The notes below the pieces were generated by a model. It had not been told where the DNA came from. It worked only from the letters and a program-made list of their open reading frames with translations, and searched no databases. Shown here piece by piece: positions 1,402 through 35,969 of a stretch of DNA of 64,000 nt. Source of the DNA: Candidatus Dojkabacteria bacterium. Its GTDB lineage: Bacteria > Patescibacteriota > Dojkabacteria > GCA-002793355. Numbering within the stretch: the first letter of the stretch is position 1; every line of letters begins with the position of its first letter. The stretch covers positions 138,259 to 202,258 of the forward strand of contig CP129477.1 in assembly GCA_030583825.1 (NCBI GenBank), in the 5' to 3' direction. The position numbers were made by a program, and so were the translations under genes.

Positions 1402-2100
1402 TTAATCAATAATATAAATTGTCAGCCAACGAGTGCTCCAATTTGCATAACGCAAATCATCATATGCCACATCTATTGTATTTCCTTTTACCGCACCTCC
1501 AACATCTTGAGCTTCTCCCCATCCATAGCCGGGAATATACATTTTGGTTCCAAGTGGAATAACACGTGGATCAACAGCGACTATACCTTTTGTTAAATAA
1601 CGCCCTGTAGCAGTTGTTTTGTTACATCCTAAACACGTATGATCATACGAAGTCGCTCGTACATATAATGCCCGCAAATACTGAAATTCCTCTCCCTCGT
1701 CTGTCCTGGCAACCTTATATACTTTATTTGTTCCGACTTCTATCACTTCCTGTTGTGGAGAACGGATTACTTTATCAGCAAGAAGAGTATGAATAATCTC
1801 TCCTTTTGCAAGTGTTAATGAATATGATTGTCTTCTCACTCCGGCAATTCCGGGAACTCCAACACGTTCTTGCCCTGGAGGAAGTGAGTTTACAAACCAT
1901 CGTTTTGAAGTATAAGGAATATCTTCATAGGTATGATATGTCCCTTTAAAATCAGTCCTCTTATCAATAATGCTCATTGGACGAAACTGGTACTGAGGAA
2001 TTGTATATGGAGGGTATTCCTGTGCAGAAACTGCAGGAATTAAGTGAACAAAAATAATAAGTAGTGAGGTAATAAAAACGAGTAGTCTTTTTAATAACAC
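1402..2100 (-). CDS. Secreted 3D-domain protein (MltA/YabE-like 3D domain), likely a cell-wall-active protein
   Basis: It has an N-terminal signal or TM segment. The C-terminal region carries the 3D-domain pattern RATSYD...TATGR...GIVAVDPRVIPLGTKMYIPGYGWGEAQDVGGAVKGN. Confidence 0.65.
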   Translation of the reverse strand: MLLKRLLVFITSLLIIFVHLIPAVSAQEYPPYTIPQYQFRPMSIIDKRTDFKGTYHTYEDIPYTSKRWFVNSLPPGQERVGVPGIAGVRRQSYSLTLAKGEIIHTLLADKVIRSPQQEVIEVGTNKVYKVARTDEGEEFQYLRALYVRATSYDHTCLGCNKTTATGRYLTKGIVAVDPRVIPLGTKMYIPGYGWGEAQDVGGAVKGNTIDVAYDDLRYANWSTRWLTIYIID

Positions 2101-2133: not shown

Positions 2134-4182
2134 TTACTGCATATATTCATCTTTTAATGTGGCGGGAATGTCCGCAAGATACTGTGAAGGAATTGTTTCA
2201 AAACTGATATTACCCATATTACGGCGACGCGCAGATGTCAAATATAGCTGCCTTTTGGCACGTGTCACAGCAACATAAAATAATCGGCGCTCTTCTTGAA
2301 GCTGAATTGGGTTTGTTAAAGACCGACTATGTGGAAAACTACCTTCTTCTAATCCAACAACAAATACTGTTCCGAATTCCAACCCCTTTGCGGCATGAAT
2401 ACTCATTAATTGAACTCTGCCTTTTATGTCAGAAGTATGAGATTCATTGGCCTCTTTGGTTTCTTCAACAAGTGCAATATCCTGCAAAAATGAATTTAAT
2501 CCTTCCCTTCCGGTATATGCTTGCTTTACAGCAACAGCGGAAAGCTCATTAACGTTTGCAAGACGGGAAATTTCCTCTTCTTTAGTCCCGGCCATTTTCT
2601 GAATCCATTGCTTATATCCTATTTTGTCTACCAGCAACTGAATATATTGAGATATTTCTCTGTTAGGATCAAAGCTTTCTTTAATAAGCTCTCCCATAAC
2701 GGTAAAGAAGTGCGAATATTTCGTAAAATAATCACTTCCTTCTTCTAAAATCTTTTCTATGTATTCTTGACTCATCATTGTTGCTGCAAAAACATCGTCA
2801 TGAGAAAGGAGCGACCCGTACCAAATAAATTCTCCAAAGGTCAATGCACACTTTTTTGCAATTTCTTTAAGTGAGCCAATCGCTTTATCTCCAATTTTAC
2901 GTGACGGAGTATTAATAATACGTAACATGCTTACCTCATCTCGAGCATTATTCACAAATTTGAGATATGCCAAGATGTCCTTAACTTCGAGGCGTTGGTA
3001 GAATCCAACGCCACCGACAAGCTTATAAGGGATATTGTATTTCACAAAAATATCTTCAAAGTTTCGTGATAACGAGTTTACTCTGTATAAAATTGCAACC
3101 TCGTCGAGGTTTCTTCTATATTTATCCAACTCTCGCAATACAAACATTGCTTCCATAAATGGATCTTCTAAGCGATTTGTAATAATTTTGTTAGTCCCTG
3201 AATTTTCTGTCCATAATGACTTTGCAATACGGTTTGGATTCTTGGAAATTACATAGTTTGCAGCATCGAGTATCACTTTAGTTGAACGATAATTTTGTTC
3301 GAGCTTAATAATCTTATGCTCTGGAAAGTCTTTTTGAAAGAACTTAATATTATCAACAGTTGCGCCACGCCACGAGTAAATTGACTGATCTTCATCTCCA
3401 ACGACACATAAATGACGGTGCTGAGATGCCAATGCGCGCACAATCTTATATTGCTGAATATTCGTATCCTGGTATTCGTCTACAAGAACAAATTTGTTCT
3501 CTTCCTGGTATCTCGCGAGAATATCGGGATGCTGTTCGAACATATCAACAACGCGTGATAATAAATCATCAAAATCAACAGCATTCAGATTTCTTAAACG
3601 CTTTACGTACTCTTTATATACTCTGGAAACAACTTCATCGAAGTCGTCTCCATAACTGTTTTTAAAGTACTCATCAGCAGTAATGCCCTTTGATTTTGCT
3701 TCAGAAATTTTCCCTTGAATCGCGCTCGGCTTTAGATTCACACTGATGTCAAAATCTTTACATATTGCCTTTACAACTGAAAGTTGATCATCACTATCAT
3801 AAATAGAGAATGACGCATCCATACCAATATTACGTGCATTCCGGCGAAGCAACATTGCACCATATGAATGGAAGGTACCAATAAAGTACCGACGATGTGG
3901 AGGTGCTCCAAGCAGAGTATTGATTCTTTCAGCCATTTCTCCCGCTGCTTTTTTTGTAAATGTGACAGCGACAATAGATTCGGGAGGATAATCTAAATCT
4001 CGAATGAGATGTGCAATTTTATGAGTAATAACCTTTGTCTTTCCTGAGCCGGCACCAGCCAAGATCATTAAAGGGCCATCATTATACAACACAGCTTCAC
4101 GCTGCTGAGGGTTAAGAGATTCTACAAGATCCATTGGAAAAATACTTAGTTGATAAATCGGAGATTCGGACGGTACATCCAT
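2134..4182 (-). CDS. pcrA: ATP-dependent DNA helicase of the UvrD/PcrA family
   Basis: Walker A is present (AGAGSGKTKVI) along with UvrD-family motifs across 682 aa. The first 37 nt overlap the upstream gene, so the true start may be the internal Met near 4134. Confidence 0.85.
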   Translation of the reverse strand: MDVPSESPIYQLSIFPMDLVESLNPQQREAVLYNDGPLMILAGAGSGKTKVITHKIAHLIRDLDYPPESIVAVTFTKKAAGEMAERINTLLGAPPHRRYFIGTFHSYGAMLLRRNARNIGMDASFSIYDSDDQLSVVKAICKDFDISVNLKPSAIQGKISEAKSKGITADEYFKNSYGDDFDEVVSRVYKEYVKRLRNLNAVDFDDLLSRVVDMFEQHPDILARYQEENKFVLVDEYQDTNIQQYKIVRALASQHRHLCVVGDEDQSIYSWRGATVDNIKFFQKDFPEHKIIKLEQNYRSTKVILDAANYVISKNPNRIAKSLWTENSGTNKIITNRLEDPFMEAMFVLRELDKYRRNLDEVAILYRVNSLSRNFEDIFVKYNIPYKLVGGVGFYQRLEVKDILAYLKFVNNARDEVSMLRIINTPSRKIGDKAIGSLKEIAKKCALTFGEFIWYGSLLSHDDVFAATMMSQEYIEKILEEGSDYFTKYSHFFTVMGELIKESFDPNREISQYIQLLVDKIGYKQWIQKMAGTKEEEISRLANVNELSAVAVKQAYTGREGLNSFLQDIALVEETKEANESHTSDIKGRVQLMSIHAAKGLEFGTVFVVGLEEGSFPHSRSLTNPIQLQEERRLFYVAVTRAKRQLYLTSARRRNMGNISFETIPSQYLADIPATLKDEYMQ

Positions 4183-5252
4183 CCTTTCGTTCCTTGTTTT
4201 GTTTCTATTTCAAGCCACGCTCCCTGATCATTTAAAATAATAACAACAGTATCAGGGTCAAGCTTAAATAGTTCCGCTGAATTTAAATCGGGCGCTGCGC
4301 GTACTCTCGCAAATGGTACATTATCTCGCGGACGAATAACTGCCAATGCAAGATTATCACTAAAAACTGTAAACTCAAGCTTTTTTGCTGAGTCTGGAAT
4401 CACTTTGTTGCCTACCTTCAATTCTAATAGTTGCTCATATTTACCCGGAACGATCGGAGTATTCAGCGTTAATTTTATTTCTGTTTGTTCACCAGGCTTT
4501 AATGAGCCAGTATTTTTTTGAATATTTGATGTGGAAATCCAGCTTACATCGTAAAAGGCACTGTTTCCGGGGACACTCACATATACTGGTGCAATAGAAT
4601 CTCCATAGACACCAAACTCTCCTACATTTTTAATAAAAATACTCACGGGCAATGTCTCACGTTGACCAATACGCTCATTTGCCGTAATTCGTTCAATTTC
4701 AAGCTTATATTCTCGTGTTTGCCAATTACCCTCTGCTGGACGAAGTTGCTCACAAACAGTTCCACACTCGGCTTTTTCTTCAAGTACAAGATTGCCGTCT
4801 GTAATTCGCGCAACAGCCGTACTTAAGGTCACTATATTATACTTATCTATTAACGACTGTAGCGAAGATGGTAATGCTCCAGTTGCACCAACAACAATAA
4901 CGGGTTTTCCATCTATTGTCATTTTTGATGAGATATCAGCAATATCACACTGGTGAAAAAAGACATCACCGTTTACAGCAATTGCGTGAAATGGCGAACG
5001 ACGCTGTGTATTGACATAGGTAAATTCATAGAAAAGCTCTTTACTGATATCGCTAGCACCGGTAGATGAACCTTTATAAACACGAAGCAAGTCAACAACA
5101 ATAAGCTCTTCAACGGGAGTAAATTCTGTAATTGCAGAACATTCATAAGGCAATGCCGACTCCGCCGTAATTGTGACAGCAGAAACACGTGGTATACCTA
5201 CTACAAAACTAGAGATAATTGCAGTAAATAAGGCAAAAACAATCCTTTTCAT
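4146..5252 (-). CDS. Secreted hypothetical protein with a C-terminal SH3b-like domain
   Basis: It has an N-terminal signal peptide. The C-terminus reads GAWLEIETKQGTKGWMYRPNL, which fits the bacterial SH3 pattern. Confidence 0.5.
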   Translation of the reverse strand: MKRIVFALFTAIISSFVVGIPRVSAVTITAESALPYECSAITEFTPVEELIVVDLLRVYKGSSTGASDISKELFYEFTYVNTQRRSPFHAIAVNGDVFFHQCDIADISSKMTIDGKPVIVVGATGALPSSLQSLIDKYNIVTLSTAVARITDGNLVLEEKAECGTVCEQLRPAEGNWQTREYKLEIERITANERIGQRETLPVSIFIKNVGEFGVYGDSIAPVYVSVPGNSAFYDVSWISTSNIQKNTGSLKPGEQTEIKLTLNTPIVPGKYEQLLELKVGNKVIPDSAKKLEFTVFSDNLALAVIRPRDNVPFARVRAAPDLNSAELFKLDPDTVVIILNDQGAWLEIETKQGTKGWMYRPNLRFIN

Positions 5253-5268
5253 ATGTCTATTATATACA

Positions 5269-6276
5269 CTACTTTATGAAATGTCGAAATTCAATGGCCG
5301 GATAAAAGATATAGTATGTTGTTGGAATGGCCTGTGGCGCTGCTCCTCCAATTGGTTGCCGCAAAGTTCCATTTAAGAAAAGTCTGTGGTGAGGCATTGC
5401 ATATAACTGTTTATCTTTAACAATTGTAGCATAGACAATATCTGCAGTCGTTAGCTGCATATTACGCGGAACTTCATTTAAAGAGGCACTGGAAACTTCT
5501 TCACAACCTTCTCCATCACAATGTAAATCATGATAACTCACGATTGTAAATTCTTCATGTTTTTTTTGTATTTCATCAATATTTTCCCATGAGCTGACAA
5601 TTCTATATTGTAAGTGTTCCGATGTCTGTAAATATTCAACAGAACATTCAAAACGTGTAACAACCTTATCTGTGACAAAAAATCGGCATAATGGGCCAAG
5701 TTCTTTTGTTACTACTTTTACTGAATCGAGAGTTTGATAAATACTTACTTCGCAGGAAGAAGTTCCTGTTGCTATTTCTTCAGCAGTCAACGTAATATTT
5801 GGAAAGAGAAATGATACAAAACCCGGGACAGCATTACCGCATTCAACATTTCCGGAAGAGATTCCCTTATTGGCAAAAAGAACAAATTTGGGTACTTCTC
5901 CTGAAAAAATAGTTAAAAATTTTTCTTCATCAGCGCTGGTATAACTCTCCTGCTCCTCAATAAAACTACTTTCAAGTTTTGTAACCAATTGCTCCGAATC
6001 TATAATTACGGTTGGATCAATTTTTGAAGTCGTCACTTTGTAGACCGGCATAGTAGTAGGCACAAATCCTTGAGAAGCATCTCGAACCATTGGTCTTACT
6101 AAATTATGAACTGTTATTTTATTGATAAGTGCATTATTTGTGTAATATTCTGGATAATTGAATGTGCCGTATGTTGGCAAATATGTTACTAATGAATATA
6201 ACAATAATCCTACAATCATAATTATTCCAGCAAAAAGCAGCGCGTATACAAGAGCTTTTCTTAGCTTAATAATCAT
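5269..6276 (-). CDS. N-terminally membrane-anchored hypothetical protein that is cysteine-rich and extracytoplasmic
   Basis: A single N-terminal TM helix is followed by about 300 aa carrying roughly 10 Cys. No motif was recognised. Confidence 0.5.
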   Translation of the reverse strand: MIIKLRKALVYALLFAGIIMIVGLLLYSLVTYLPTYGTFNYPEYYTNNALINKITVHNLVRPMVRDASQGFVPTTMPVYKVTTSKIDPTVIIDSEQLVTKLESSFIEEQESYTSADEEKFLTIFSGEVPKFVLFANKGISSGNVECGNAVPGFVSFLFPNITLTAEEIATGTSSCEVSIYQTLDSVKVVTKELGPLCRFFVTDKVVTRFECSVEYLQTSEHLQYRIVSSWENIDEIQKKHEEFTIVSYHDLHCDGEGCEEVSSASLNEVPRNMQLTTADIVYATIVKDKQLYAMPHHRLFLNGTLRQPIGGAAPQAIPTTYYIFYPAIEFRHFIK

Positions 6277-6303
6277 AATTTCTGCCTTTCATCTTATTAC
6301 ATG

Positions 6304-9099
6304 TTACCGACATGAGCCCCTGGAAGTATCTCCAATTGAGCAAGTAAACGAACCACACATTGCCATAAATCCAATTTGTGCATCAACAGTAGAAGCACCC
6401 TGCTTTATATATGCGTGAATATGCGGGCCAGTCCAACACTGGCTTTTAGGAACATTTCTTGTCATTGCACCGATCAATGTTCCTTTTGGAATAAGCGTTG
6501 AACTGCTTACTGGTTTTAATGGTGTGGAGTGCATAAATCCATATGTGACACCGCCTGTTGCACTAATAAATTCAAAGAAGTTACCAATACTTGGGCCGCC
6601 TGCTCCACCACAGTTATAATCTCCTCTTCGTATCATATAACCGTCAACTGGTGCATAAATACCATCACCACCGGACGGAGAAATATCAACAGCAGGTTGT
6701 TTACCAGTAAAGTTTGAACAACCATGACTATATCCACCGTATGGCCCTTGGCCACAAGAAAACGATCGAGACCATGGGCAATCTCCTTCTTGAAACTGCG
6801 CATATGTTGACGGGTCAATCGGATTGTTAATAACCGGAGTGTATGTAGCGAAGTCAGGTAACGCAACGCCTTCTGGATTATAAAACTCGTCAGGGATAAA
6901 TTCGGTTGATGAGTTTGCAGATTGTAATCCCGGATCAATCATATCTTGATATGCTCCGTTACAACAAATCATTAACATAATGATACTACCAACTATGATA
7001 ACAACCATAATATCAATGACCACCTTGAGTGCTTTTCCAACAAGCTTATCGAGCATGCCAAAACTCACAACGTTTAAGACCGTATATGCAATTCCTACAA
7101 CATTTGTGAGAGCAGTAAGCAGCATTTTTAGCCCTTTTTTAAGTACTTCGAGACCTAATCGTTTTAAGAGAGCCATAATTGCTGCCATGGCTTTATTCAA
7201 TACAAACTTCATTGCTTGCTTTGTCAATGAAGTAACCCGCTCAATTCCTTTGCTGACCAGTAATTGAGGAGCTCGTGCTACATATTGAGCGTATCTATTG
7301 AACTTAACAAACCGTTGGTATGCTTTATTATTCATCATTCTTGCAGCAAGCCTTGTTTGCCACCCATAGACATTCTTGCCTTTTGCGTCTTTGTCAAAAA
7401 TACCAAACGGTTTGCCTGTAGCAGGATCTATCTTAAAGTTTCCAAAATTTGTGCCACTTACAAGCATTCGTTGGAAGAGCGATCCATTTAAAAAGCCCTG
7501 TGCGATCTGCCATGGATGATATACATGAAGACGGTAGAACATTTTCTGCATTGCATTAGCGTCTTTAGACAGTACGAAGTCGTTGGCAATTACATTGAAT
7601 TTATCAATTTCCATGCCGCCGAATCTTCCACCGAGAGCATCAATTGAGCGAGGAACAATCTTACCGTCTTTCGTTTTATACCATCCTTCCATATTCCCTA
7701 ATCCACCACCACTATTATTTGCAAGCATTTGCAAATATTGTGCCTGAGACGTTGCACTCATACCGTATCTTCCTGACGCTTCAGCTAATACTCGGAATGT
7801 ATCTCCACGCACAAAACCAAGCATTGTGAAGGCGCCTGGGACGTTTTTCGTAAAGTTCTGCCAGCGACTGCGGGTATAATAGTACTGCTCGCTCCATGTC
7901 ATTTTCCCATCTAAACCTCGAGCTGTTGCTGCATATCCGACAAGCTTGCTTGCCATTTCAGTGTCACCGTTATTACGATATGCTTCACTGAGCTTGGCAA
8001 TAGCATATTCTGCCATTTGTCCTTCAGACTTACCGCCAGCTTTTGTTCCTTTTGCTGCTGTTTTTACAAAATCTTCGAATCCACCTGGGCCAGTACTATA
8101 TAGCCAGGCATTTAAATTTGCTTGAACGCCAGGATCAGAGACAGAAGCAAATAAGTTTGCAAGTGAAAGTCTCGCTTCTGCCATTCTGGTTGCTTCTCTT
8201 GCAGGATCAGTTGAATCTCCAGAAAAAATATTGGCAACGGTCATTCGTTTACCTTCGTGCGCACCTGAATTAAAATTGTATTGCTGGTGTTTTGTCCCTC
8301 TGTCTGGATCTTTCATTTGTCCAAGCGCCCTTTCAATTTCCGATGCAACTTGTGCACGCTGGCCTTTATCAGTTACACCTCCAATCATCGCGAATGCCTG
8401 TGCGTAAACACCATCACGGCGGTCTTCTGCAGCTCCTTGGCGAATTGCTTTATTTGAATCAGCGTTTAATGGATTGAAAACATCACGTTTTGCCCTTTCT
8501 TCTGCAAATAATCCTGCATCACGCTTTACATCCATAACAAATGAGGCGACATCACCTTCAATACCTGCCTTTCTGCCTGTGATATAGAGTGCCGCATCTT
8601 GGAAAGAATCTCCAACACCTCCCCAAAATTTCATACTTTTGGTTTGTTGCCAGTTTTCAAGCCATTTGTTGGCTATTTTTTCTGAAAAGCTACTAGGATC
8701 TTTGAAATAATTAATTGCGTTATCCAGGTTCGCGTTGATTTCAATATCGTTTTTACCAACTTCAAAGTTTCGGACATCCATTTGTTTGCCACTTGAGTCT
8801 GTGACAGCTGTAGAAAATCCAGGAGATGTACTTATTGTTATAACAGTGCTGTTTCCAAGCTGAGAACCTTGGTTTATCCATTTAGTAGCGGCACGTTCTG
8901 CAAGTTCACCAACATTATAGAAGGCACCTGCTTGCGCAGCGACGACAGGAAGTGCTTTTTCAAACGCGTCAGAATAAAGGAATAGTACTGGAGCTGAGTT
9001 TGGATTTTTAGTTTTTCGAGCAGAGTCTTCAGCAGTCGTGAATAATGCGTCAAAAATACCTGACAACCCTTCATATGTAGATGGCGCATCTTTAGGCAC
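6304..9099 (-). CDS. Large membrane-spanning protein with a C-terminal M23/LytM-like peptidoglycan hydrolase domain. A CHAP domain is not excluded.
   Basis: It is 931 aa. The N-terminal 650 aa are Ala/Gly/Lys-rich with no signal peptide. Hydrophobic segments lie near residues 660-730. The C-terminus has the pattern VDISPSGGDGIYAPVDGYM ... TGPHIHAYI, which resembles the M23 HxH motif. A GDCPW stretch resembles the CHAP Cys motif. Confidence 0.5.
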   Translation of the reverse strand: MPKDAPSTYEGLSGIFDALFTTAEDSARKTKNPNSAPVLFLYSDAFEKALPVVAAQAGAFYNVGELAERAATKWINQGSQLGNSTVITISTSPGFSTAVTDSSGKQMDVRNFEVGKNDIEINANLDNAINYFKDPSSFSEKIANKWLENWQQTKSMKFWGGVGDSFQDAALYITGRKAGIEGDVASFVMDVKRDAGLFAEERAKRDVFNPLNADSNKAIRQGAAEDRRDGVYAQAFAMIGGVTDKGQRAQVASEIERALGQMKDPDRGTKHQQYNFNSGAHEGKRMTVANIFSGDSTDPAREATRMAEARLSLANLFASVSDPGVQANLNAWLYSTGPGGFEDFVKTAAKGTKAGGKSEGQMAEYAIAKLSEAYRNNGDTEMASKLVGYAATARGLDGKMTWSEQYYYTRSRWQNFTKNVPGAFTMLGFVRGDTFRVLAEASGRYGMSATSQAQYLQMLANNSGGGLGNMEGWYKTKDGKIVPRSIDALGGRFGGMEIDKFNVIANDFVLSKDANAMQKMFYRLHVYHPWQIAQGFLNGSLFQRMLVSGTNFGNFKIDPATGKPFGIFDKDAKGKNVYGWQTRLAARMMNNKAYQRFVKFNRYAQYVARAPQLLVSKGIERVTSLTKQAMKFVLNKAMAAIMALLKRLGLEVLKKGLKMLLTALTNVVGIAYTVLNVVSFGMLDKLVGKALKVVIDIMVVIIVGSIIMLMICCNGAYQDMIDPGLQSANSSTEFIPDEFYNPEGVALPDFATYTPVINNPIDPSTYAQFQEGDCPWSRSFSCGQGPYGGYSHGCSNFTGKQPAVDISPSGGDGIYAPVDGYMIRRGDYNCGGAGGPSIGNFFEFISATGGVTYGFMHSTPLKPVSSSTLIPKGTLIGAMTRNVPKSQCWTGPHIHAYIKQGASTVDAQIGFMAMCGSFTCSIGDTSRGSCR

Positions 9100-9117
9100 T
9101 TTGTAACGACACTATGC

Positions 9118-10590
9118 TTATTTAAAGAATCCTCCGACAATTGGCGCACCAGAAGCGGCTTTCTTAACCGGATCTGCGGCTGCACTAGCTGCTTTACTGC
9201 CTTGAGTACCAAGAAGCTCATCAAGAATATTCGATGACGCAGGAGCCATAAGGAAGATAAGTACAGCAATAATAAGCTGCGGCCCAGCGGCTCTCAAGAA
9301 AGAATCTTCTATTCCTGTTGCTCCAATTGCACCACCCGAAATTGACTCAACAATACTCGCGTTTTCACCAAGGTCAATTGATGCAATGTACAATGCCAAG
9401 TTTACAAAAATAAAGATCATTGGAGGAACCAATGCATTTTTAAACATTTTTCGGATCCATCCCATATATCCATCCTGTTTTCCAGGCAATGATGCAACCA
9501 TAAAGTACACAGGAGCTAGGATAATATCAAGAATCATTCTAATATATGTAGTAAACAGCGTGAAGAATACTCGGAAACCTGCAGTAAAAAGCATTACGGC
9601 AAGAATAAGTTTCGACAAAACATGAACAATTGCGCCCACGATATCAAATCGAATATCAATATCCGTTGGTAAACCCAAAAAGCCAGATCCAGATGTTTCT
9701 ATACCGAGATATTCACCGAGATTTATGGCGCCTAAAATATCTCCATATCGCCCAAGCAATGCAAGCGGAGTCAAATTAATAATAGCAGCAAGACCATTTG
9801 GCAAAAGACCTGAAGATGATCCCTCACTATTAAACATTCCATAAAGAATAATGATCAAAAACTTTGAAAGGTTTAAGAAAAATCCACCCAAGGCAAAACT
9901 TGCAAGAGCAAAGAGAATACCAATAACCAAGTTTTGAAGTGACATACTCACAGTGACAATTGCTTGCCCACCAAGTCTTTGACGAAACATAATCATAAAC
10001 CCTGCATATAACAAGACAATGACAAACCCCATCATTGCAAAGGCAAACGAAAGTCCCCATATCTTACTAATTCCTAACTCTATACCACTTGTGCCCGTAC
10101 CAAGAAAGGCAGCAGCATTTGTATTCCAACTATCTAGTGGTGGACTTTCTGCATATGCAGGATAGTCTACAACTGAACGAAATTCTTTTGGCAATAATAT
10201 TTCTGCGTAGTGCGTTGGAATATCAACTTGTATGGGAGCAAAGAATGCCATTGTAACCATTTGACCTGTAAATTTCAAAAGTCCCGCATTACGCTGTTCT
10301 TCAGGCATTGCTTGAACTTGAGCTGTACATCCGTGTGCACTTTCAGGGCCGTAAAATAGAGTATCTGCAATAACTAATTGATTCATCCAATTAACGCTAC
10401 CTGATCGTAAAGAGTGTGGTTGTTCGTCACCTGAAGCAGATGCATTCATATCTGCTTCTTCGTATATCTTTGCCGAAGGTCGGAAAGTTGGGTCGGTCTG
10501 ACAATATCCCGCTGAAACTGGCTGTGGAGTAAGAAATGCAAAGAATCCTACAATCGTTAAGAATAAAAATATAGTTTTTAATCTATTCAT
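9118..10590 (-). CDS. Polytopic inner-membrane protein that is putatively VirB6/TrbL-like
   Basis: A signal peptide and a periplasmic domain of about 180 aa are followed by at least 6 TM helices and a Gly/Ala-rich C-terminus. The architecture and neighbourhood suggest a T4SS channel component. This is not a sequence-level identification. Confidence 0.4.
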   Translation of the reverse strand: MNRLKTIFLFLTIVGFFAFLTPQPVSAGYCQTDPTFRPSAKIYEEADMNASASGDEQPHSLRSGSVNWMNQLVIADTLFYGPESAHGCTAQVQAMPEEQRNAGLLKFTGQMVTMAFFAPIQVDIPTHYAEILLPKEFRSVVDYPAYAESPPLDSWNTNAAAFLGTGTSGIELGISKIWGLSFAFAMMGFVIVLLYAGFMIMFRQRLGGQAIVTVSMSLQNLVIGILFALASFALGGFFLNLSKFLIIILYGMFNSEGSSSGLLPNGLAAIINLTPLALLGRYGDILGAINLGEYLGIETSGSGFLGLPTDIDIRFDIVGAIVHVLSKLILAVMLFTAGFRVFFTLFTTYIRMILDIILAPVYFMVASLPGKQDGYMGWIRKMFKNALVPPMIFIFVNLALYIASIDLGENASIVESISGGAIGATGIEDSFLRAAGPQLIIAVLIFLMAPASSNILDELLGTQGSKAASAAADPVKKAASGAPIVGGFFK

Positions 10591-10598
10591 GCTCGATT

Positions 10599-10862
10599 TT
10601 ACTTACGATAGAGTAATGTTGTCAATACATTCATAACGGAAGACATAAGGTTTCCTGTACCGCGTTTAAATTGCGGCAAGACATTATTCTGAAAATCAAC
10701 TACTTTTGCATTTATACCCTTTACAGTATCGAGAATTGCGAGAATATCTTTCATCCTTAGTGCAATCTGAACAGAAATATATGTCGCAACACTTAAAAAT
10801 GCAATGAGTGCGAGCAATACGACAATTGAGAGAGACTGGATAATAAGATCAAGAGATTCCAT
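10599..10862 (-). CDS. Small single-pass membrane protein
   Basis: It is 87 aa with one TM helix and is tightly spaced within the operon. Confidence 0.45.
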   Translation of the reverse strand: MESLDLIIQSLSIVVLLALIAFLSVATYISVQIALRMKDILAILDTVKGINAKVVDFQNNVLPQFKRGTGNLMSSVMNVLTTLLYRK

Positions 10863-10893
10863 ATATACATTGGTTATATTTTATTTCGGTACT

Positions 10894-11103
10894 TTATCGA
10901 GATTGATATCTTTCAACCTCTTCGATCACATTATACACAAACTTACCAATGATAGGAACTGTTTTTATTTGAGTAAGAATAAGACCTCCAATAGCCAAAA
11001 GAACCGCTGCACCTAATACAGTACCCAATCCCCATGCGGTTCCACCGACAAAGCCTTCTACTGCAATTCTCTTGAGTGATTTCTTTTCAGAAGTGACCTT
11101 CAT
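10894..11103 (-). CDS. Small membrane protein, a possible pilin/VirB2-like subunit
   Basis: It is 69 aa with a Gly/Ala-rich hydrophobic core (GFVGGTAWGLGTVLGAAVLLAIGGLIL). Its start overlaps the groES stop by 1 nt. Confidence 0.4.
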   Translation of the reverse strand: MKVTSEKKSLKRIAVEGFVGGTAWGLGTVLGAAVLLAIGGLILTQIKTVPIIGKFVYNVIEEVERYQSR

Positions 11104-11390
11104 TATTTTGCTACTTTAGCAAGGATATCCTTTGCTGACAATAGCATGTATTTTTCACCATCAAGCTCGACTTCTGTTCCAGAATAGCGAGAATACACTA
11201 CCCAATCACCTACCTGAAGTCCTTTTTTCTCGATTTTCTTTGAATTTCCTACAGCAAGGATTTCTGCCATAACGGGTGTATGGTCTTCTTTAACATTTTC
11301 TGGAAGGTAAATACCTGACTTTGTCTTTTTCTCAGGCTCTACCTGCTTGATAAGAACTTGATCTGCAAGAGGAATAATTTTGTGGCTCAT
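11103..11390 (-). CDS. groES: Co-chaperonin GroES
   Basis: The 95-aa product aligns by eye across the full length of E. coli GroES, including the mobile-loop region EKKTKSGIYL and the LAVG motif. Confidence 0.9.
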   Translation of the reverse strand: MSHKIIPLADQVLIKQVEPEKKTKSGIYLPENVKEDHTPVMAEILAVGNSKKIEKKGLQVGDWVVYSRYSGTEVELDGEKYMLLSAKDILAKVAK

Positions 11391-11442: not shown

Positions 11443-11469
11443 TTGGCAGTCTTGAGTGTCAAGTGCTAG
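11443..11469 (-). promoter_or_regulatory. Putative degenerate CIRCE-like inverted repeat (HrcA operator) upstream of groES
   Basis: On the minus strand the sequence is CTAGCACTT-N9-GACTGCCAA, compared with the consensus TTAGCACTC-N9-GAGTGCTAA. That is 14 of 18 positions, with the correct 9-nt spacer. It lies about 50 nt upstream of the groES start. Confidence 0.35.
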
Positions 11470-11539: not shown

Positions 11540-11628
11540 GGAGAGATGCCAGAGCGGTCGAACGGGCTCCCCTGGAAAGGGAGTATACGAGTTTCGTATC
11601 GAGGGTTCGAATCCCTCTCTCTCCGCCA
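11540..11628 (+). tRNA. tRNA-Ser(GGA), type II with a long variable arm and an encoded CCA
   Basis: The acceptor stem GGAGAGA/TCTCTCC pairs perfectly. The anticodon stem is CTCCC/GGGAG with loop CTGGAAA. The variable arm is 17 nt. The T-loop is GGTTCGAATCC. Confidence 0.85.
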
Positions 11629-16258: not shown

Positions 16259-18175
16259 TTAGTTTTGTTGGGCAACACTTACACTTATATCTACTCTTGA
16301 TTCTTCTTTTGGAACATACCTCAAAAAGTCAGGCATCCACGTTGGGTAAAAGATAATATTTGGAGTTGTTGCGAGAGTATCAATTGCAGAGACGGTTGCA
16401 AGCATTTCCGGCCATTTCTTCCCTGCGATATCGGATCGAAGTTGTTCAACATTCAATCGTGGTGTCACTAAGGCAGAAGCACTAAGTACAAAGGTCACTT
16501 TATCGTCTGTTCCAACTGTTGTTTTTTCAGTCTTTATATCTCGCTGGTCAATGAGTAAGTCAACATCAGAGTTGATTGTCTTATTTAGTTTGTATTTATC
16601 GCCAAGAAATCTTTCTGCAAGCTTTTCATATGATTCTTGGTGGTAATAGTACGCCGTTGCAGTAGTTTTCATTTCAAGAAAAGCCTGTGTTGTTTCAGTT
16701 CCTACAGCTGGGTTTACAACTGGTGTACCGTCAACTTCGCTCTTAAATGATTCCACTATAAAAACGTATCCGTTGTTTTGATTCTTAAATTGCAAGTCTG
16801 ATTTGAGTTGCTCAAAAAGTTCCTTCTTTAGTTGATCAACAGCATCGTCTACATCCTGCTTGCTAAGAACTTTGAATGTTCTCTTTGTTCCGCCTGTAAA
16901 TGCTGCTGCATTTTCTCCTGTTAATGTTGGAAAACCAGCTACTGAATATCCTGTTGTTGGTGTAAGGTTATATTCTTCGCCGAAATCTGCAGCAACAATT
17001 CCTACACTTGAGCTTAAAGAAGGAGGAACATTAATTTCTGCCTGAGTAATGAATTTAAGACCACCAGAGCTTGTGACAGTGGTACCGGCTGGAACTTGTA
17101 TAAATCCTGGGCCAGGATTGCCTTCAATGGTAATAGTTCCGGTTGCTTTTGTTCCATCAACTCCATCACCTGTTGCATTGATATTTACTGATCCACGTTG
17201 TTCTGCACGCTCTTTAATAAGCTGAAATTCTTTTTTATTGACATCAAATCCAGTTACGGCAGTTGTTGCCACAACCGTTTCATTAATTTCGACTTTGTCA
17301 GACACAACTTTCAATTCGATTCGTAATCTTGGGAAAAAGAGATAGTATACAAGAAACATTCCACCAAAAAGTATTAATAACCCGGCACCAATAACTCCAG
17401 CAATGCGAAGCATTGCCTTCGATGAGCCGGCAGGTTTTGCCGGCGCTAATGTTTCAAATCCATCGTTGTCAGACGCTGTTTGCGTTGGCGGTGTTTTCTT
17501 TCTAAATAGAGACGCAAACGGCCCTGGTTGGGATTTGGCAACAACCTTAGAAACATCCATTCCCATAATTCCATATCCACCAGGAATTCGGTCTTCTTCG
17601 TTTACCTTAGGAGGTCGCAATCGTATGGGAGCTTCTACTTCTGGATCAGCCTCATCACTCTCGCTTTTTGCCTCATTATCTCGAGTTGCAGCCAAAGGCT
17701 TTATATCTTCGTCATCTTTTGAAGCATCCACCGTTCGTCCTCCGACGATAACTTCGGGTGCATCATCCTTTTCTTCTTTAGCTGTTTCCTTTGATTCTTT
17801 CTCAACTTTGTCTTCTTTTTCATCTTTTTTCGAGTTTAAACCTACCTGGCTCTGATGAAGCTCGTCTAATTCTTCCTGTCCTTTTGCCCACATATTTGGA
17901 GTAACATCGGACTGATTAGTGACAACAATATTTCCTGCATCTGAGGCAAGCTGAGCATATTTCTTATTTGGGGCAACCAACACAAGGTTTTTACCCAATG
18001 CCAACGCCTTTCTCTTGAGCGTCTTTAATCCTACAGGGCTGTTGATAAGGTCATTTCCTTCAGGCAAAACAAGAAGGATATTTGTTCCATCTGCCTTTTT
18101 AATAGTATCAACAACGATATTAATATCGTCATCAATAGTTGCATTTACTTTTATCACTTCTGTTTTTTTTGCCAT
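16259..18175 (-). CDS. Hypothetical bitopic membrane protein (638 aa) with a cytoplasmic N-domain, an acidic low-complexity linker, a TM helix, and an extracellular domain of about 350 aa
   Basis: There is a TM helix near residue 265 (MLRIAGVIGAGLLILFGGMFLVYYLFF). The gene starts 2 nt after the upstream FtsA-like gene. No domain was recognised. Confidence 0.5.
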   Translation of the reverse strand: MAKKTEVIKVNATIDDDINIVVDTIKKADGTNILLVLPEGNDLINSPVGLKTLKRKALALGKNLVLVAPNKKYAQLASDAGNIVVTNQSDVTPNMWAKGQEELDELHQSQVGLNSKKDEKEDKVEKESKETAKEEKDDAPEVIVGGRTVDASKDDEDIKPLAATRDNEAKSESDEADPEVEAPIRLRPPKVNEEDRIPGGYGIMGMDVSKVVAKSQPGPFASLFRKKTPPTQTASDNDGFETLAPAKPAGSSKAMLRIAGVIGAGLLILFGGMFLVYYLFFPRLRIELKVVSDKVEINETVVATTAVTGFDVNKKEFQLIKERAEQRGSVNINATGDGVDGTKATGTITIEGNPGPGFIQVPAGTTVTSSGGLKFITQAEINVPPSLSSSVGIVAADFGEEYNLTPTTGYSVAGFPTLTGENAAAFTGGTKRTFKVLSKQDVDDAVDQLKKELFEQLKSDLQFKNQNNGYVFIVESFKSEVDGTPVVNPAVGTETTQAFLEMKTTATAYYYHQESYEKLAERFLGDKYKLNKTINSDVDLLIDQRDIKTEKTTVGTDDKVTFVLSASALVTPRLNVEQLRSDIAGKKWPEMLATVSAIDTLATTPNIIFYPTWMPDFLRYVPKEESRVDISVSVAQQN

Positions 18176-18177
18176 AG

Positions 18178-19434
18178 TTAATAATCACCCAAATAATTAA
18201 AGTGGGGCTTTTTCAGTACTTCCCAATAAAAACGGGCAAGTGACGCAGGAGTAACATCATAAGGATTAACAAGTAACCCGCTTTTATCATAGACTCTATC
18301 CAGTTTATCTGGAGTTACGAGCTGAACTTTCGGAATTCTTTTGAACGGTAATCGTTTATACCATGGATACGCCAAAATTGCTTCTTTTAAATCTGGAAGC
18401 ATCGCACCACCACCACACATATAAAACTGTGCAGGATATTGCTTTACATTTTCAAGATCTTCCAGCGCAACTTCAAGTGCTTCTACCCACAACGAAACAT
18501 CTGTAGAAAGACTTCTTCTGACTTCGTCACGCATGTCTAGTGGTAATTCGCCTAGCGAGTACTTAATTTTTCGTCCTTCTGCAACATTAAAGCTTGCATC
18601 CATTGATTGAGAGATTCGTTTTGTAAATGCACGACCTCCAAAGGCGTACATTTTTGTTTGAATATGGTTTCCATTCTGCACCAGAGCAACGTCAGTTGTT
18701 CCACCACCGACATCAATAAAAATGCCGGAAAAATTGTGATCTGCACTTCCTGAAAATGCTCGCGAAACTGCAAAAGGCTGAGTAACAATAGATGCAATGC
18801 CAAGCTCAAGCTCCTTTGAAAGCTTTCTCAGTGTATCAATATAAGGCTTTGGTGCAAAAGATGCGTACAAATAAAGCTGAATTTCTTGTGGAGATGTGCC
18901 TTCAAGTTGTGGAACGGCAATACCATCTGCCCCAAGGCCAGTTACTGTAATTTGTAATACTTCAACTTGATCTTCAGTTTCACCTAATCGTTTAGCAAGC
19001 TCAGCTTTTCCATTTTCTAAAATATCAGAAATGACAGAGTTAATAATAAGCTGTGCTTCCTGATCTGAAATTTTCTTGCCAGCAGCACGTCCGCGGTCAT
19101 ATTGCACATTAATAGTAATTCCGTTAATCAATTCTCCTGCCATTCCTAGAACCATTCGTCGTGGTCTGTCTTCAGGATCAACTGCGTCTGCAAGCTTTTG
19201 CACAACTAACCGTGCATTTTCAAGAACTGTTTCTTCGTTAAGAATAACACCGCTTCGCATGGCATGAGTCTGCTGTTTTACCTGATACGAATACCAGACA
19301 TCAACACCAAGATCATTCATAGAAAATAAAAGGCCTTTAAGTACCTCGGTACCGATATCAAGTGAAATCAGATACTTCTCTTCTTTTTTCTCTTTTGGCT
19401 TTTCTTTCTGTCCAAAAAGCGGAAACAGTTTCAT
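18178..19434 (-). CDS. Actin-like ATPase of the FtsA/PilM type, more FtsA-like
   Basis: A phosphate-1-like motif ISLDIGTEVLKGLLF is present. The fold pattern and the 418-aa length resemble FtsA. No ftsZ is adjacent. Confidence 0.5.
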   Translation of the reverse strand: MKLFPLFGQKEKPKEKKEEKYLISLDIGTEVLKGLLFSMNDLGVDVWYSYQVKQQTHAMRSGVILNEETVLENARLVVQKLADAVDPEDRPRRMVLGMAGELINGITINVQYDRGRAAGKKISDQEAQLIINSVISDILENGKAELAKRLGETEDQVEVLQITVTGLGADGIAVPQLEGTSPQEIQLYLYASFAPKPYIDTLRKLSKELELGIASIVTQPFAVSRAFSGSADHNFSGIFIDVGGGTTDVALVQNGNHIQTKMYAFGGRAFTKRISQSMDASFNVAEGRKIKYSLGELPLDMRDEVRRSLSTDVSLWVEALEVALEDLENVKQYPAQFYMCGGGAMLPDLKEAILAYPWYKRLPFKRIPKVQLVTPDKLDRVYDKSGLLVNPYDVTPASLARFYWEVLKKPHFNYLGDY

Positions 19435-32495: not shown

Positions 32496-35400
32496 GTGCC
32501 CAGGAAGCGTTTACAACAATTTGTTCTTTTCTTTTCCTTCCTTTTGTTGTTGATTTTACCTACAGCGATTGTCGGGTACGATAACTTCGGTGATTTACGA
32601 AACATTGCATTTGGAAAACGATTTTTACAGGAAGAAGGACTCTATACAGTGTCAACAGAAAGCTCGACAAATATCACAAAAGATTCTCCCTTTGTTGTTA
32701 CGGCAGAAATATCTTCTCCTGCAGCATTACCACTTAATTATTTTGCGGCTGTTGTTGAATTTGACTCTACAAAGGTAAGTATTTCTGATATTGAACTTGA
32801 AGAAAACAGTGGATTGAAAGTGATTCAGGCAGAAGGATTGTATGTCATTATGCCAAATGGCAACCATGTTCCATCGTCGGTTGAGGATTTGCTTCCTGAA
32901 GGATGTTATGAAGCAAAGACCTGTGACTTCGTTTCGTTTCAAAAGAACACAGCCCGAATGAGAATTAACGGCTTACTCAAAGACGAATTAACTGAGCAAC
33001 AGCGACCGATAAAAATTACATTTGTTGCAGCGAGCGAGTCATCCTCTTCATTTTTTTGGAATAGAAAAACTGTCTCTCCCGAACTAAAGCTTGGCTCTTT
33101 TGTTCGGAATGCAGTACCAGAGTTTCTTACTGAACCGACACTGTATATTACAGAAAACGAGCGTTACTCTTACAAAATCTCCACTCGCGACTTTGATAAT
33201 GACCTTGTTTCCCTATCACTCTCATGCCCACCAAACATTGTCTGTTCTCAGGAAGTTAGCTCACCTGAAGGCATGCAGATTATAGGAAATGAGCTTGTTT
33301 GGGAAACTCCACGAGCTCGACAGGATAAATACATTATTACTATCTATGCGGATGATGGAAAAAGCGTTTCTACACAAACATTTGCGTTAAAAGTCCTTCG
33401 TGCAGAAGAAAGGAATTTTTCATGCACATTCACAATTGGATACGCAGTAAAGGTTGTTGATTACAAAAAAGTAACTCCGCTCATTTTAGATGCGCAGCTT
33501 TCGTCGGGAATTTCAAAAGTAGATGTGTCATTAGCTAAAGAAAATACTGTTGAAACAACATTTTCTTACACATTCGAGAATAATCCACAGTCAATAATTC
33601 TCGATGAGAATGCAAACCCACCTCTCGCATACAAATTCAACGAAGGAACATATACAGGTGAAGCAATCATTACTGATCCTTCGGGCAATGTGTATAGTTG
33701 TGAGCTGGTTAATAGCTATGGTGATAACAGTATTAACATCTCTCCTGTAACGGCAGCAGTTTCAGATTTTTTAGATAGCGTTGTCCAATCGGTGCGCGCC
33801 GCATCTGCTATTATCGTTGGCGATAACAGACCTCCAACATTTACAACGAATCCATACACGCAATCACAACCGGGAGTTTCTTTTGTTGTTAACACTTCTT
33901 ATAACTATGTACTGACTGCGCAGGATCCAGATGGAGACCCTCTTTCATATACAAGAGTAGCTGCGCCTTCATGGGCAAATGTATCAGTGCTGCAAAATTC
34001 GGGAGGAACTTTATCACTGCAAATAACTGGTGTTCCTACAACTGGAGGCAGCAATTTATTTGCATTCACAATTAACGATGGTAACGGTAGTTTTATTACA
34101 CAAACTTGGGTGATCAATGTTGATTATCCTGACAACGATATTCCAAGAGTCACTATTAAACAGCCGACAACCGGTATTACGCGAACACAAGGCCAGACTT
34201 TTTTTCTTGAATGGGATGTTGAAGATCGGAATCAAATCGTTAAATTCGAACTGTACTATACTAAACAGTTAGGCGGGCCATTAACAACATTTAACAATAA
34301 TATTGGCTTTCGCACGAGATCAATGACTCTTGGTACAGGCAATATTCCCCCTGGAGATTATTACTTTGTTCTTAAAGCGTACGATAACAGAAATCCAGCA
34401 GGTATTGGACAGGGAGTTACTCAACTTGTTCGTATTCTTCCACGACCGCAACCAACCCAAACAGTTGCACCAACACCGACTCCCACACAAACAACAGCTC
34501 CAACAAGTACACCATCCGTAACTCCTTCAGGAACGGTGACGCCAACTCCCACCCCTACGCCTACAGAATCAGTAACTCCAACACCGACTGTGTCAGAAAC
34601 ACCTACTCCGACCCCAACCCCAACAGAAGAGATTCCCACCCCTACACCGGAATTGGTCTTTATTAGTGTTGTCAAACCTATTGAAGGGGGGAAGCTTGCT
34701 GCTGAAGAATTAGAAATTGTCGCACGTATAAATGCATCAAATGAGGCGACATTGCAATGGAGAAACGTTACTGTATTAATTAACGATCTCGACGTTTCTT
34801 CAAAAGTATCTCGCTCAAGCGAAGAAGGAAAAACAATTTCGTTAGCGTATCGCCCTGCAAATTTGCTACCGAAAGGAAACCACACAATTACTATTCGAGC
34901 TACCGATAGCGAAGGAAATGTAGGAGAAAAGAAAGTCTCGTTCAGCATTACAGAACTCATGATTACTGAAGATGTCGAAGATACGACAAACTTTCTTGGG
35001 TTTAAAATTCCAACAGCTATTCGAAATATTTTCCTGATAGGACTTGTTATTCTCGTACTGGCACTCTTACTTCCAATATTGCTGTACATGACCTGGAGTC
35101 GAGGCAATAAGAAAACAACAGTTCAGACGACAGTAACACCGCCAGCACCAAAACCGGCAAGCCCAGCAGTATTCCCCACGACTCAATCAGGAATGCCAAA
35201 AGTGACAAATACAACACCGCAACCATCAGCACCTGTTATGCCATCTGCACCGCCGGCTCCAGCGCCTCAACCACAGCGTGTATCGTCGTATTCTCCAGAA
35301 AATGCAGGCCTTACGACAGCATCCAGTAATGCACCTCAGTCAGTACAACCTGCACAGGTAACACAGAGTGCTGCTCCTAAGCCATCACCGTTGCCGGCAA

Positions 35401-35969
35401 GTACACCGAGTTCGTCACAGATTCCTCGGTCAGCAAATATTCCAAACTTTATTCAACCGAAAGCAGGCGCACCGAGCACTCTGCAAACTTCCCAGCCTAG
35501 TGCATCAGTACCAACGTCTCAGGCCAAAGTGAATGCTCCCGCAGCAGCTCCACAACCTCAACCACGTCCTGTACAACCGACACAGTCATATGCTCCACCG
35601 CAACAACCGAGTGTTGCGCCTCAAGCTCCGTCAATGACTCCAGCTGCTCCTCAAAAGCCAGCACCAACGAACATACAAAAACCGGATATGATTCCTTCTA
35701 AGAATATTCCTACATCGCAAACGACACCAACACAAAGGCCTGCAACGGTAACACCAATTCAGAAACCAGGAACTGTAACACCGGTGGGACAAAAAGTACC
35801 GACAACAGTACCTGTTCAAAGTACTCCCGTAGCAAAAGCTCCAATCGCACAACCACCACAGAAACCACAAGGGCCTGCAACTGTTCCTCAGAATATTCCT
35901 GCATCAGGAGATAAGCCTTTGACGCAAAACCAGAAACTCCCACCAAAGTCTCCAGTGACGATAACATAG
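32496..35969 (+). CDS. Giant surface protein (1157 aa) with dystroglycan-type cadherin-like/putative Ig domains, a Pro-Thr linker, a TM helix and a 300-aa Pro/Gln/Ala-rich C-terminal tail
   Basis: It has a signal peptide. The cadherin-like pattern appears in PPTFTTNPY...[25 protein letters not shown]...[18 protein letters not shown]-rich linker reads [20 protein letters not shown].... A TM helix lies near residue 840 ([22 protein letters not shown]). No LPXTG or LAXTG sorting motif was found. Confidence 0.6.

Follow-up and report, generated by a model that had tools for sequence, protein, structure and literature searches.

A type IV secretion system (T4SS) is essential for the epibiotic growth of the only member of the Patescibacteria that has been tested genetically, and its role there is reported to be unknown (PMC10633639, PMC11665869). 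The published T4SS clusters of this phylum include arrays of pilins, as well as peptidase and lysozyme homologues which are essential for growth (PMC12102498, PMC10633639). In a survey of patescibacterial T4SSs, VirB6 was found to be scarce or absent in some classes, including Microgenomatia, 'suggesting extreme sequence divergence', and the VirB1-like hydrolases were mostly encoded away from virB4 (PMC12102498). Among the conjugation modules of Gram-positive bacteria, Tn916 carries the gene of the polytopic Orf15 (VirB6-like) followed by that of Orf14 (lysozyme/NlpC-P60, C40), pCF10 carries prgH-prgI-prgJ(VirB4)-prgK, in which PrgK is a large, membrane-anchored hydrolase of 871 amino acids (aa), and ICEBs1 encodes ConG and CwlT. 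Here we analyse a 64-kb stretch of DNA (the window; contig CP129477.1, positions 138,259 to 202,258) from the 1.09-Mb metagenome-assembled genome (MAG) of a Candidatus Dojkabacteria bacterium (candidate phyla radiation (CPR)/Patescibacteria, WS6). Five neighbouring genes of the window, named here after the lengths of their products (87, 490, 931, 335 and 368 aa), in our judgement rather probably encode a divergent VirB6-like and hydrolase module of the known Patescibacteria T4SS, which is separated from virB4.

The 490-aa gene is followed by the 931-aa gene, in the same way as Orf15 is followed by Orf14. An earlier reading of the window made from the sequence alone (the sequence-only reading) had held that the small subunits, the polytopic channel protein and the cell-wall hydrolase are those of a Gram-positive-style T4SS. 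The order of a polytopic gene and then a hydrolase gene is present in the Tn916 part of pCF10. The 931-aa protein is large and membrane-anchored like PrgK, and its hydrolase domain varies as it does across these conjugation modules (M23 here, GH25 in the related locus L005). Unlike the hydrolases of those modules, it has a ~650-aa N-terminal domain before its transmembrane (TM) region and carries M23 only; moreover, no relaxase or coupling protein is found nearby, and the setting is one of chromosomal housekeeping genes. As for the T4SS of Southlakia epibionticum (SEML1_0006-0019; Quinonero-Coronel et al. 2025), it finds a counterpart in the MPF_FATA-like PrgI and VirB4 encoded in the same genome here. 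The distance between these two genes and the string, put at about 36 kb by the sequence-only reading, was measured as 35.7 kb. In contrast to the Patescibacteria systems, the components are thus found in two loci 36 kb apart, and the candidate VirB6-like subunit is too divergent for the hidden Markov models (HMMs) of the published survey.

The related loci were collected by a scan for a family motif in one genome per GTDB species, which found a relative encoded in 485 genomes and from which 80 loci were fetched. Further loci came from contigs bearing homologs, and iterative HMM searches were then run over all open reading frames (ORFs) of the loci; the counts given below are out of 89 sources (88 related loci, designated L001 onwards, and the window). 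The conserved unit is 87aa–490aa–931aa–335aa–368aa–pcrA, and not the string that begins with groES. A giant TM protein, usually with a hydrolase domain, is encoded directly after the 490-family gene in 73 of the 89 sources. Dozens of divergent genomes, with identities of 22-50%, repeat the order 490–931–(~330)–SH3b–pcrA, and for this reason the string is considered to be more than a chance arrangement. Downstream of the module, the SH3b ortholog is present in 48 loci and pcrA in 45, with a G5/3D gene beside pcrA in 38; pcrA is a conserved housekeeping neighbour rather than a part of the machine, and the G5/3D protein is likewise a conserved neighbour. Upstream, most Dojkabacteria encode a pair of Fn3 surface proteins together with a TM protein of ~105 aa and a protein of ~450 aa, whereas groES is found there in only seven sources (the window, L001, L005 and L009-L012). 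The remaining genes of the window are housekeeping genes (rnj, pnp, infB, nusA, dnaJ, alaS, mltG and lepA), so the region belongs to the core chromosome and not to a mobile element.

There is also variation in the number and surroundings of the cassettes. A tandem duplicate of the 490-family gene precedes the giant gene in L005 (10001-16109) and L046, and a second cassette is found on a separate contig in several genomes (L081/L083, L037/L071 and L025/L066). In another Dojkabacteria lineage (L002), a gene upstream of the cassette (6248-7507) encodes a distinct secreted protein of 419 aa, which is Cys-rich and has a C-domain resembling M23 (GPHFHVE motif); three paralogous anchored proteins of ~365-410 aa accompany it. 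The Patescibacteria-type cassette is also present on contigs labelled Pseudomonadales, Gammaproteobacteria, Prolixibacteraceae and, in many cases, 'Candidatus Saccharibacteria' (among them L031, L054, L064, L079, L085 and L086). The contigs labelled Saccharibacteria show Dojkabacteria-style synteny, and the taxonomic labels of these MAGs look unreliable.

The strongest evidence for the 490-aa family as a T4SS component comes from T4SS clusters of other lineages. In L086, a family member is the only polytopic protein of its cluster. This cluster contains five or more PF18895 pilin genes and a protein of 1359 aa with mid-protein TMs, NAGPA and Peptidase_M23 (1e-19), and PrgI is encoded at the margin of the fetched DNA. 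A pilin array, a 490-family member, a giant M23 protein and PrgI are united in this locus, which recalls the described Patescibacteria T4SSs. In the complete genome of a member of Beckwithbacteria (L087), the family member lies four genes from PrgI; those of L007 and L008 each have a T4SS_pilin gene directly upstream. No PF18895 pilin genes were found in the window. The sequence-only reading had proposed that the string is a candidate second half of a T4SS; this is plausible, and the conservation of the cassette and its relatives in T4SS clusters give it comparative support.

The 490-aa protein (identical to QY314_00810) consists of an N-terminal signal/TM segment, an extracytoplasmic helical domain of ~150 aa and five long TM helices (174-201, 208-259, 315-366, 373-404 and 427-460), as placed by a hydrophobicity scan and an AlphaFold2 (AF2) model. 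It thereby has the number of TM helices (five or more) that marks VirB6/TrbL proteins as polytopic. The AF2 model, based on a multiple sequence alignment (MSA) of 150 sequences, has a pLDDT of 80 and a pTM of 0.80; an earlier one from an 11-sequence MSA had a pLDDT of 47 and was discarded. Two sub-regions of the model are a VirB2-like TM hairpin (about 167-241) and a VirB6-like helix bundle (about 315-460). The family is very large and has no Pfam model: in an exhaustive profile search of clusters at 50% identity, 3,979 representatives have E<=1e-3, and 2,109 of them reach E<=1e-30. Weak matches to Hint modules (E 0.0075-0.05) are found at the C-terminal extensions of long family members (P0094 621-692 and P0082 581-651); these may represent an autoprocessing/intein-like domain, or noise.

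Concerning the fold, the matches of the highest probability to the 490-aa model in a Foldseek library of 350,542 PDB chains are TrwI/VirB6 chains of the R388 T4SS (8rtd_L 0.97, 7o3v_J 0.94, 7o3v_F 0.93, 8rt9_F 0.92, 7o3v_G 0.75 and 7o3v_H 0.63), the best of which is 8rtd_L (TMt 0.43). Two TrbL/VirB6-annotated proteins are also among the few high-probability matches in BFVD (0.87 and 0.94). A VirB6 profile was made of 13 sequences from diverse plasmids (a metagenome scan for TrwI relatives gave one locus). The 490-family was aligned with it by hhalign at a score of 34.4 (P 1.5e-3), compared with 20.8 for the reversed control and up to 31.1 for 40 block-shuffles, and in this alignment the near-invariant P360...PG...W378 helix-loop-helix of the family is placed on the conserved GP...W region of TrwI (175-229). 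A pilin-only profile matches the family at P 6e-4 (reversed control 15.0), and profiles seeded with the PF18895 T4SS pilin reach its first TM hairpin (167-241). The comparisons with single TrwI and with single PrgH were not significant. Among 76 relatives, Pfam detects TrbL in three (all below the gathering score, best 4.8e-5) and TrbC/VirB2 in eight; the TrbL match of relative P0138 (5e-4, 20.2 bits vs a cut-off of 25.9) covers the region corresponding to P360...W378.

These signals in the direction of VirB6 are each weak, independent and concordant. The recurring fold matches, the profile match above its controls and the relatives in T4SS clusters make the 490-aa protein the best VirB6-like candidate, as the sequence-only reading had suggested; of the homology searches that bear on this suggestion, the profile comparison gave a weak match above its controls, and Pfam gave no TrbL match to the protein itself. 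With VirB6/TrbL (TrwI of R388, PDB 7O3V/8RTD; PF04610), the 490-aa protein shares a polytopic helical structure, an extracytoplasmic N-terminal part, the Pro...Trp helix-loop-helix that aligns with the GP...W region, and relatives encoded beside T4SS pilins and PrgI. It differs in its additional ~150-aa extracytoplasmic helical domain and pilin-like hairpin, in the missing Pfam TrbL match and in being encoded 36 kb from virB4.

The 931-aa protein (identical to QY314_00805; G 10.6%, A 10.4%) comprises a ~650-aa N-terminal domain without a signal peptide, a TM region with hydrophobic segments at 660-711, and an M23 domain at about 760-931. All 67 members of the giant family have one strong hydrophobic segment before the C-domain and none (0/67) has an N-terminal one, and the charge distribution at TM 693-711 is consistent with an N-in/C-out orientation. 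From the missing N-terminal segment and this charge pattern, we infer that the ~650-aa N-terminal domain is cytoplasmic and the Cys-containing hydrolase extracellular. The conserved cores of the family (residues ~100-200 and ~480-760) have no match in PDB sequences, PHROGs or PADLOC, and a word-indexed homolog search returned just three relatives, even when started from an alignment. A defence-system reading of the module was rejected, there being no PADLOC match.

In a single-sequence Pfam search, the M23 match (PF01551) of the 931-aa protein reaches 22.8 bits, below the gathering cut-off of 28.7, and the protein alone had no match in NCBIfam, PHROGs, PADLOC or PDB sequences; ortholog P0014 has a precomputed PF01551 match. 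The profile of 39 orthologous C-domains matches solved M23 peptidases (8s3m_A 1.6e-8, 9gy1_A 8.5e-8 and 5kqb_A 3.3e-7), and further ShyA (2.7e-5), LytM (3e-4) and phi29 gp13 (3e-4). The C-domain, for which the sequence-only reading had left open an M23-like or a CHAP-like identity, is an M23 peptidase. D805, H857, H893 and H895 are invariant in the 39 C-domains, and H792 is invariant in a five-sequence full-length alignment of close relatives. As regards the metal site, Peptidase M23 (LytM/lysostaphin type) has an Asp, a His in the middle of the domain and an HxH motif, all of which are retained here, whereas the first His lies 13 residues before the Asp (H792-D805) and not in an HxxxD motif; five conserved Cys are a further difference from that family. 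Judged by these residues, the domain looks catalytically competent. In the L005 equivalent of the giant protein, Glyco_hydro_25 (3e-37) replaces M23, and the hydrolase head is exchangeable, as it is in T4SS and phage wall hydrolases. The domains usual in monoderm T4SS hydrolases (SLT, CHAP and NlpC/P60) were not detected by Pfam in the 931-aa protein. Since the Pfam tests for TrbL and for SLT/CHAP failed, the cassette is not filed in the TrbL or the SLT/CHAP hydrolase families; by analogy, it would work like the TrbL/VirB6 and monoderm hydrolase systems.

The M23 domain also has to be considered in relation to phages, in whose tail proteins it occurs. A degenerate prophage or tail remnant, with the 931-aa protein as its M23-bearing tape-measure or tail-lysin and the other proteins as tail-associated ones, is in our view very improbable. 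Besides phi29 gp13, the C-domain profile matches phage Gp16/hub proteins, a Baseplate_J-like gene lies 5 kb away, and the 490-aa model finds its best BFVD fold match in phage G gp153. However, the six module proteins are all without a PHROG match (0/6), the surroundings are housekeeping genes (pcrA, groES, rnj, pnp, nusA and infB), the synteny kept at 22-50% identity is not prophage-like, and the giant protein is membrane-anchored and bitopic. The tape-measure resemblance noted for its composition by the sequence-only reading found no support either, with no PHROG at E<=0.01, no Pfam TMP family and the housekeeping context.

The other three proteins of the module are smaller. The 87-aa protein has no family in Pfam, NCBIfam or PHROGs; it is weakly related to the TM protein of ~105-111 aa that most Dojkabacteria encode upstream of the module (hhalign probability 50%, P 1.6e-4), and it is probably a small subunit of the module. 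The sequence-only reading had described a Cys-rich anchored protein and an SH3b-tailed secreted protein, and both were borne out (335 aa with six Cys, and 368 aa). The 335-aa protein also lacks a family match in Pfam, NCBIfam and PHROGs; by position it corresponds to the ~320-375-aa gene located after the giant gene in most loci, and it shows weak C-terminal similarity to these equivalents (hhalign probability 56%, P 1e-4). No similarity of its family to VirB8/TcpC was detectable in comparisons with PrgL, Tn916 Orf13, TrwG and a candidate PrgD. The 368-aa protein has a signal-like N-terminus and an SH3b domain of the cell-wall-binding type, matched by SH3_3 at residues 314-364 (38.6 bits, cut-off 27).

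In our reading of these features, the genes at 10862-4146 constitute a conserved envelope module on the chromosome of Dojkabacteria, in which the 490-aa protein would be a highly divergent VirB6-type polytopic subunit; its first TM hairpin resembles a VirB2-type pilin. The 931-aa protein may hold its N-terminal domain in the cytoplasm and, across one TM segment, an M23 zinc endopeptidase on the outside, where it would locally cut peptidoglycan cross-links. The 335-aa and the SH3b-tailed 368-aa proteins would be extracytoplasmic accessories, probably positioning the machine on the wall. In this way, a Gram-positive-type (MPF_FATA-like) Patescibacteria T4SS would obtain from the module both its platform in the membrane and the means to breach the cell wall, and the energising PrgI/VirB4 half of this T4SS would be encoded 36 kb from the module.

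Several results weigh against this assignment to the T4SS. The 490-aa protein of the window has no match in Pfam (including PF04610), NCBIfam, PHROGs, PADLOC or PDB sequences. An hmmsearch with its family against PDB sequences and all ORFs of pCF10 and R388 gave no enrichment of VirB6, the family profile failing to pick TrwI, PrgH and Orf15 among the plasmid ORFs. Nothing in the Foldseek search of the PDB reached E<=1e-3 (best about 0.24-0.4), the target-normalised TM-scores to the TrwI/VirB6 chains are just 0.39-0.48, and the HH probabilities are low (17% for VirB6 and 28% for the pilin). PrgK, TraG and CwlT contain no counterpart of the first 650 aa of the 931-aa protein, and the giant family is not detectably related to the L086-type giant M23 proteins in the mid and N-terminal regions, M23 alone being shared. 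No VirB8-like subunit was identified in the module. None of the Dojkabacteria-type loci has virB4 within 10 kb, and it is for this reason that we infer the cooperation with VirB4 rather than read it from the loci. Finally, the M23, SH3b and G5/3D neighbours equally suit pure cell-wall remodelling.

The last point belongs to the main rival explanation, an autonomous module for wall remodelling or surface attachment that is unrelated to VirB4. In such a module, the 490-aa protein would regulate or anchor a membrane-tethered M23 autolysin, with a logic like that of FtsEX-EnvC/PcsB or SweCD-CwlO, and the autolysin would serve division, wall turnover or the digestion of the host wall at contact. 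Alongside the M23, SH3b and G5/3D neighbours, the Fn3 surface proteins upstream in most Dojkabacteria would suit it, as would the virB4 gene that is never adjacent in Dojkabacteria-type loci, the two or three cassettes in some genomes (L081/L083 and L037/L071; tandem in L005 and L046) and the statistical weakness of every VirB6 link. We nevertheless regard it as fairly unlikely: the string contains no FtsE/FtsX-like ATPase or permease in Pfam and NCBIfam searches, 490-family members are located within pilin-PrgI T4SS clusters of other lineages, and VirB6/TrbL provides the only recurring fold matches.

Concerning the 5' end of the string, every ORF listed by the sequence-only reading is present on the minus strand (Table 1), and the tight spacing that it described, beginning with groES, corresponds to intergenic distances of -37 to +31 nt. 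The stop of groES shares one base with the ATG of the 69-aa gene, pcrA overlaps the SH3b gene by 37 nt, and no terminator-like sites were found between the genes. GroES is a full-length member of its family (Cpn10 PF00166 8.2e-26, residues 4-93 vs profile 1-93) and matches 15 NCBIfam GroES models (~2e-25), all under the equivalog cut-offs. The sequence-only reading had reported no groEL, which holds within the window, where no GroEL signature motifs were found; groEL is also not adjacent to groES in the six related groES-bearing loci. A survey of genomes of the CPR reports that groEL occurs together with groES and that both are as a rule kept (PMC12641178).

A CIRCE-like repeat upstream of groES is the sole site in the window with <=4 mismatches to the CIRCE consensus, and equivalent sites lie upstream of groES in six of the seven groES-bearing loci. 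The groES promoter-like site (11462-11434) is sigma-70-like and agrees at 11/12 positions; a second promoter-like site, also 11/12, is located directly upstream of the 490-aa gene (10625-10596). The conserved repeat would imply HrcA-type heat-shock control in this CPR clade. DUF5665, the family of the 69-aa protein, was detected in six of the seven groES-bearing sources (not in L010) and in groES-bearing loci only. The DUF5665 gene travels with groES, both probably being outside the module, and the two look like a heat-shock unit with its own CIRCE-like operator and promoter. The 69-aa protein had been called pilin-like; it has one TM, no signal peptide and only DUF5665 in Pfam, and is not VirB2-like. 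It was rejected as VirB2/TrbC/T4SS_pilin (PF04956, PF18895) in a comparison with a profile of 33 pilins (hhalign P 0.043, probability 1.2%).

The coupling of groES to the module, which the sequence-only reading had found unusual, could mean that a GroEL-independent GroES co-chaperonin and the DUF5665 protein are co-expressed to aid the assembly of the membrane/hydrolase machine. This we hold to be improbable. The one-nucleotide overlap of groES and the DUF5665 gene, the close spacing without an intergenic terminator through to pcrA, the arrangement kept in six other loci and the lack of groEL in the 64 kb speak for it. On the other side, groES is upstream in 7/89 sources, which form a small clade, and unrelated genes precede the module elsewhere; its own conserved operator is typical of ordinary groES genes, and the 490-aa gene has a strong promoter-like site directly upstream of it. 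The link is treated as a clade-specific adjacency, because CIRCE-like control is ordinary and groEL and groES co-occur in CPR genomes; read-through transcription into the module may be possible.

Table 1. Positions of the string, its neighbours and the PrgI/VirB4 locus in the window.
Feature	Position	Strand	Evidence or remark
CIRCE-like inverted repeat	11443..11469	-	CTAGCACTT-N9-GACTGCCAA; overlaps the promoter-like site of groES (11462-11434) at its -35 hexamer
groES, 95 aa	11103..11390	-	Pfam Cpn10 8e-26
69-aa DUF5665 small membrane protein	10894..11103	-	Pfam DUF5665 2e-13; TM at 25-43
87-aa bitopic protein, helical tail	10599..10862	-	N-terminal TM at 7-25
490-aa polytopic membrane protein	9118..10590	-	Hydrophobicity scan and AF2 model
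931-aa bitopic giant protein with M23 C-domain	6304..9099	-	Peptidase_M23 at 802-906 (weak)
335-aa N-terminally anchored extracytoplasmic protein, 6 Cys	5269..6276	-	TM at 8-26
368-aa secreted protein, C-terminal SH3b	4146..5252	-	SH3_3 1.2e-9, SH3_4 1.2e-5
pcrA (UvrD-family helicase)	2134..4182	-	TIGR01073 7e-203
G5 and 3D-domain (RpfB-like) cell-wall protein	1402..2100	-	Pfam 3D 1.5e-12, G5 1.1e-11
PrgI-like protein, 258 aa	47084..47860	+	Pfam PrgI 6e-12, domain only at 6-87
VirB4-like ATPase, 624 aa	48502..50376	+	P-loop_TraG 2e-23, CagE_TrbE_VirB 5e-7
tRNA-Ser(GGA)	11540-11628	+	Between the groES promoter region and a divergent glyoxalase-family gene

Some other genes of the window are also described here. 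The tRNA-Ser(GGA) gene is the upstream boundary of the minus-strand string. At the PrgI/VirB4 locus, the PrgI-like protein is long, and a 211-aa protein without a family match is encoded between PrgI and VirB4 (47084-48495 region); its position would allow it to be the TrsD-like component that has been described in Patescibacteria. The product of the Baseplate_J-like gene (minus strand; 638 aa) matches phage baseplate wedge/Baseplate_J (phrog_6 4.7e-9; PF04865 8e-7), and the gene lies directly downstream of that of an FtsA/PilM-like protein of 418 aa with an actin fold (16259-19434 region). A divergent Dojkabacteria contig (L001 3457-6597) keeps both genes together, again in a housekeeping setting, where a baseplate-like protein is oddly placed. 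A 1157-aa protein (32496-35969) with N-terminal signal-like and C-terminal hydrophobic segments contains Ig-like/cadherin-like domains and is a candidate adhesin; its gene is located in the one part of the window whose G+C is elevated (0.456 at 34-36 kb vs ~0.39).

A wider reading of the T4SS assignment, which we consider possible and rather doubtful, is that the 490-family is a T4SS subunit which is found across the whole phylum Patescibacteria and has so far escaped recognition. Such a subunit would combine a VirB2-like pilin hairpin and a VirB6-like platform in one polypeptide, with a bitopic giant partner that by its ~650-aa cytoplasmic domain couples an extracellular, exchangeable wall hydrolase (M23/GH25) to the cytoplasmic side, and would be the 'missing' VirB6 (and, with its partner, VirB1) of Dojkabacteria and Microgenomatia. 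There is nothing out of the ordinary in the groES aspect. The T4SS of Patescibacteria is essential yet poorly defined, and the 490-family is large and without a Pfam model. If the assignment is true, this essential T4SS can be split genetically into an ATPase locus and a channel/hydrolase locus, and the VirB6 gap would be filled for Dojkabacteria and probably for Microgenomatia. The unusual architecture of the hydrolase, with its large cytoplasmic domain, may link the cutting of the wall to the cytoplasmic side of the machine. The 490-family, with its thousands of clusters, could then be modelled and added to the tools for T4SS detection.

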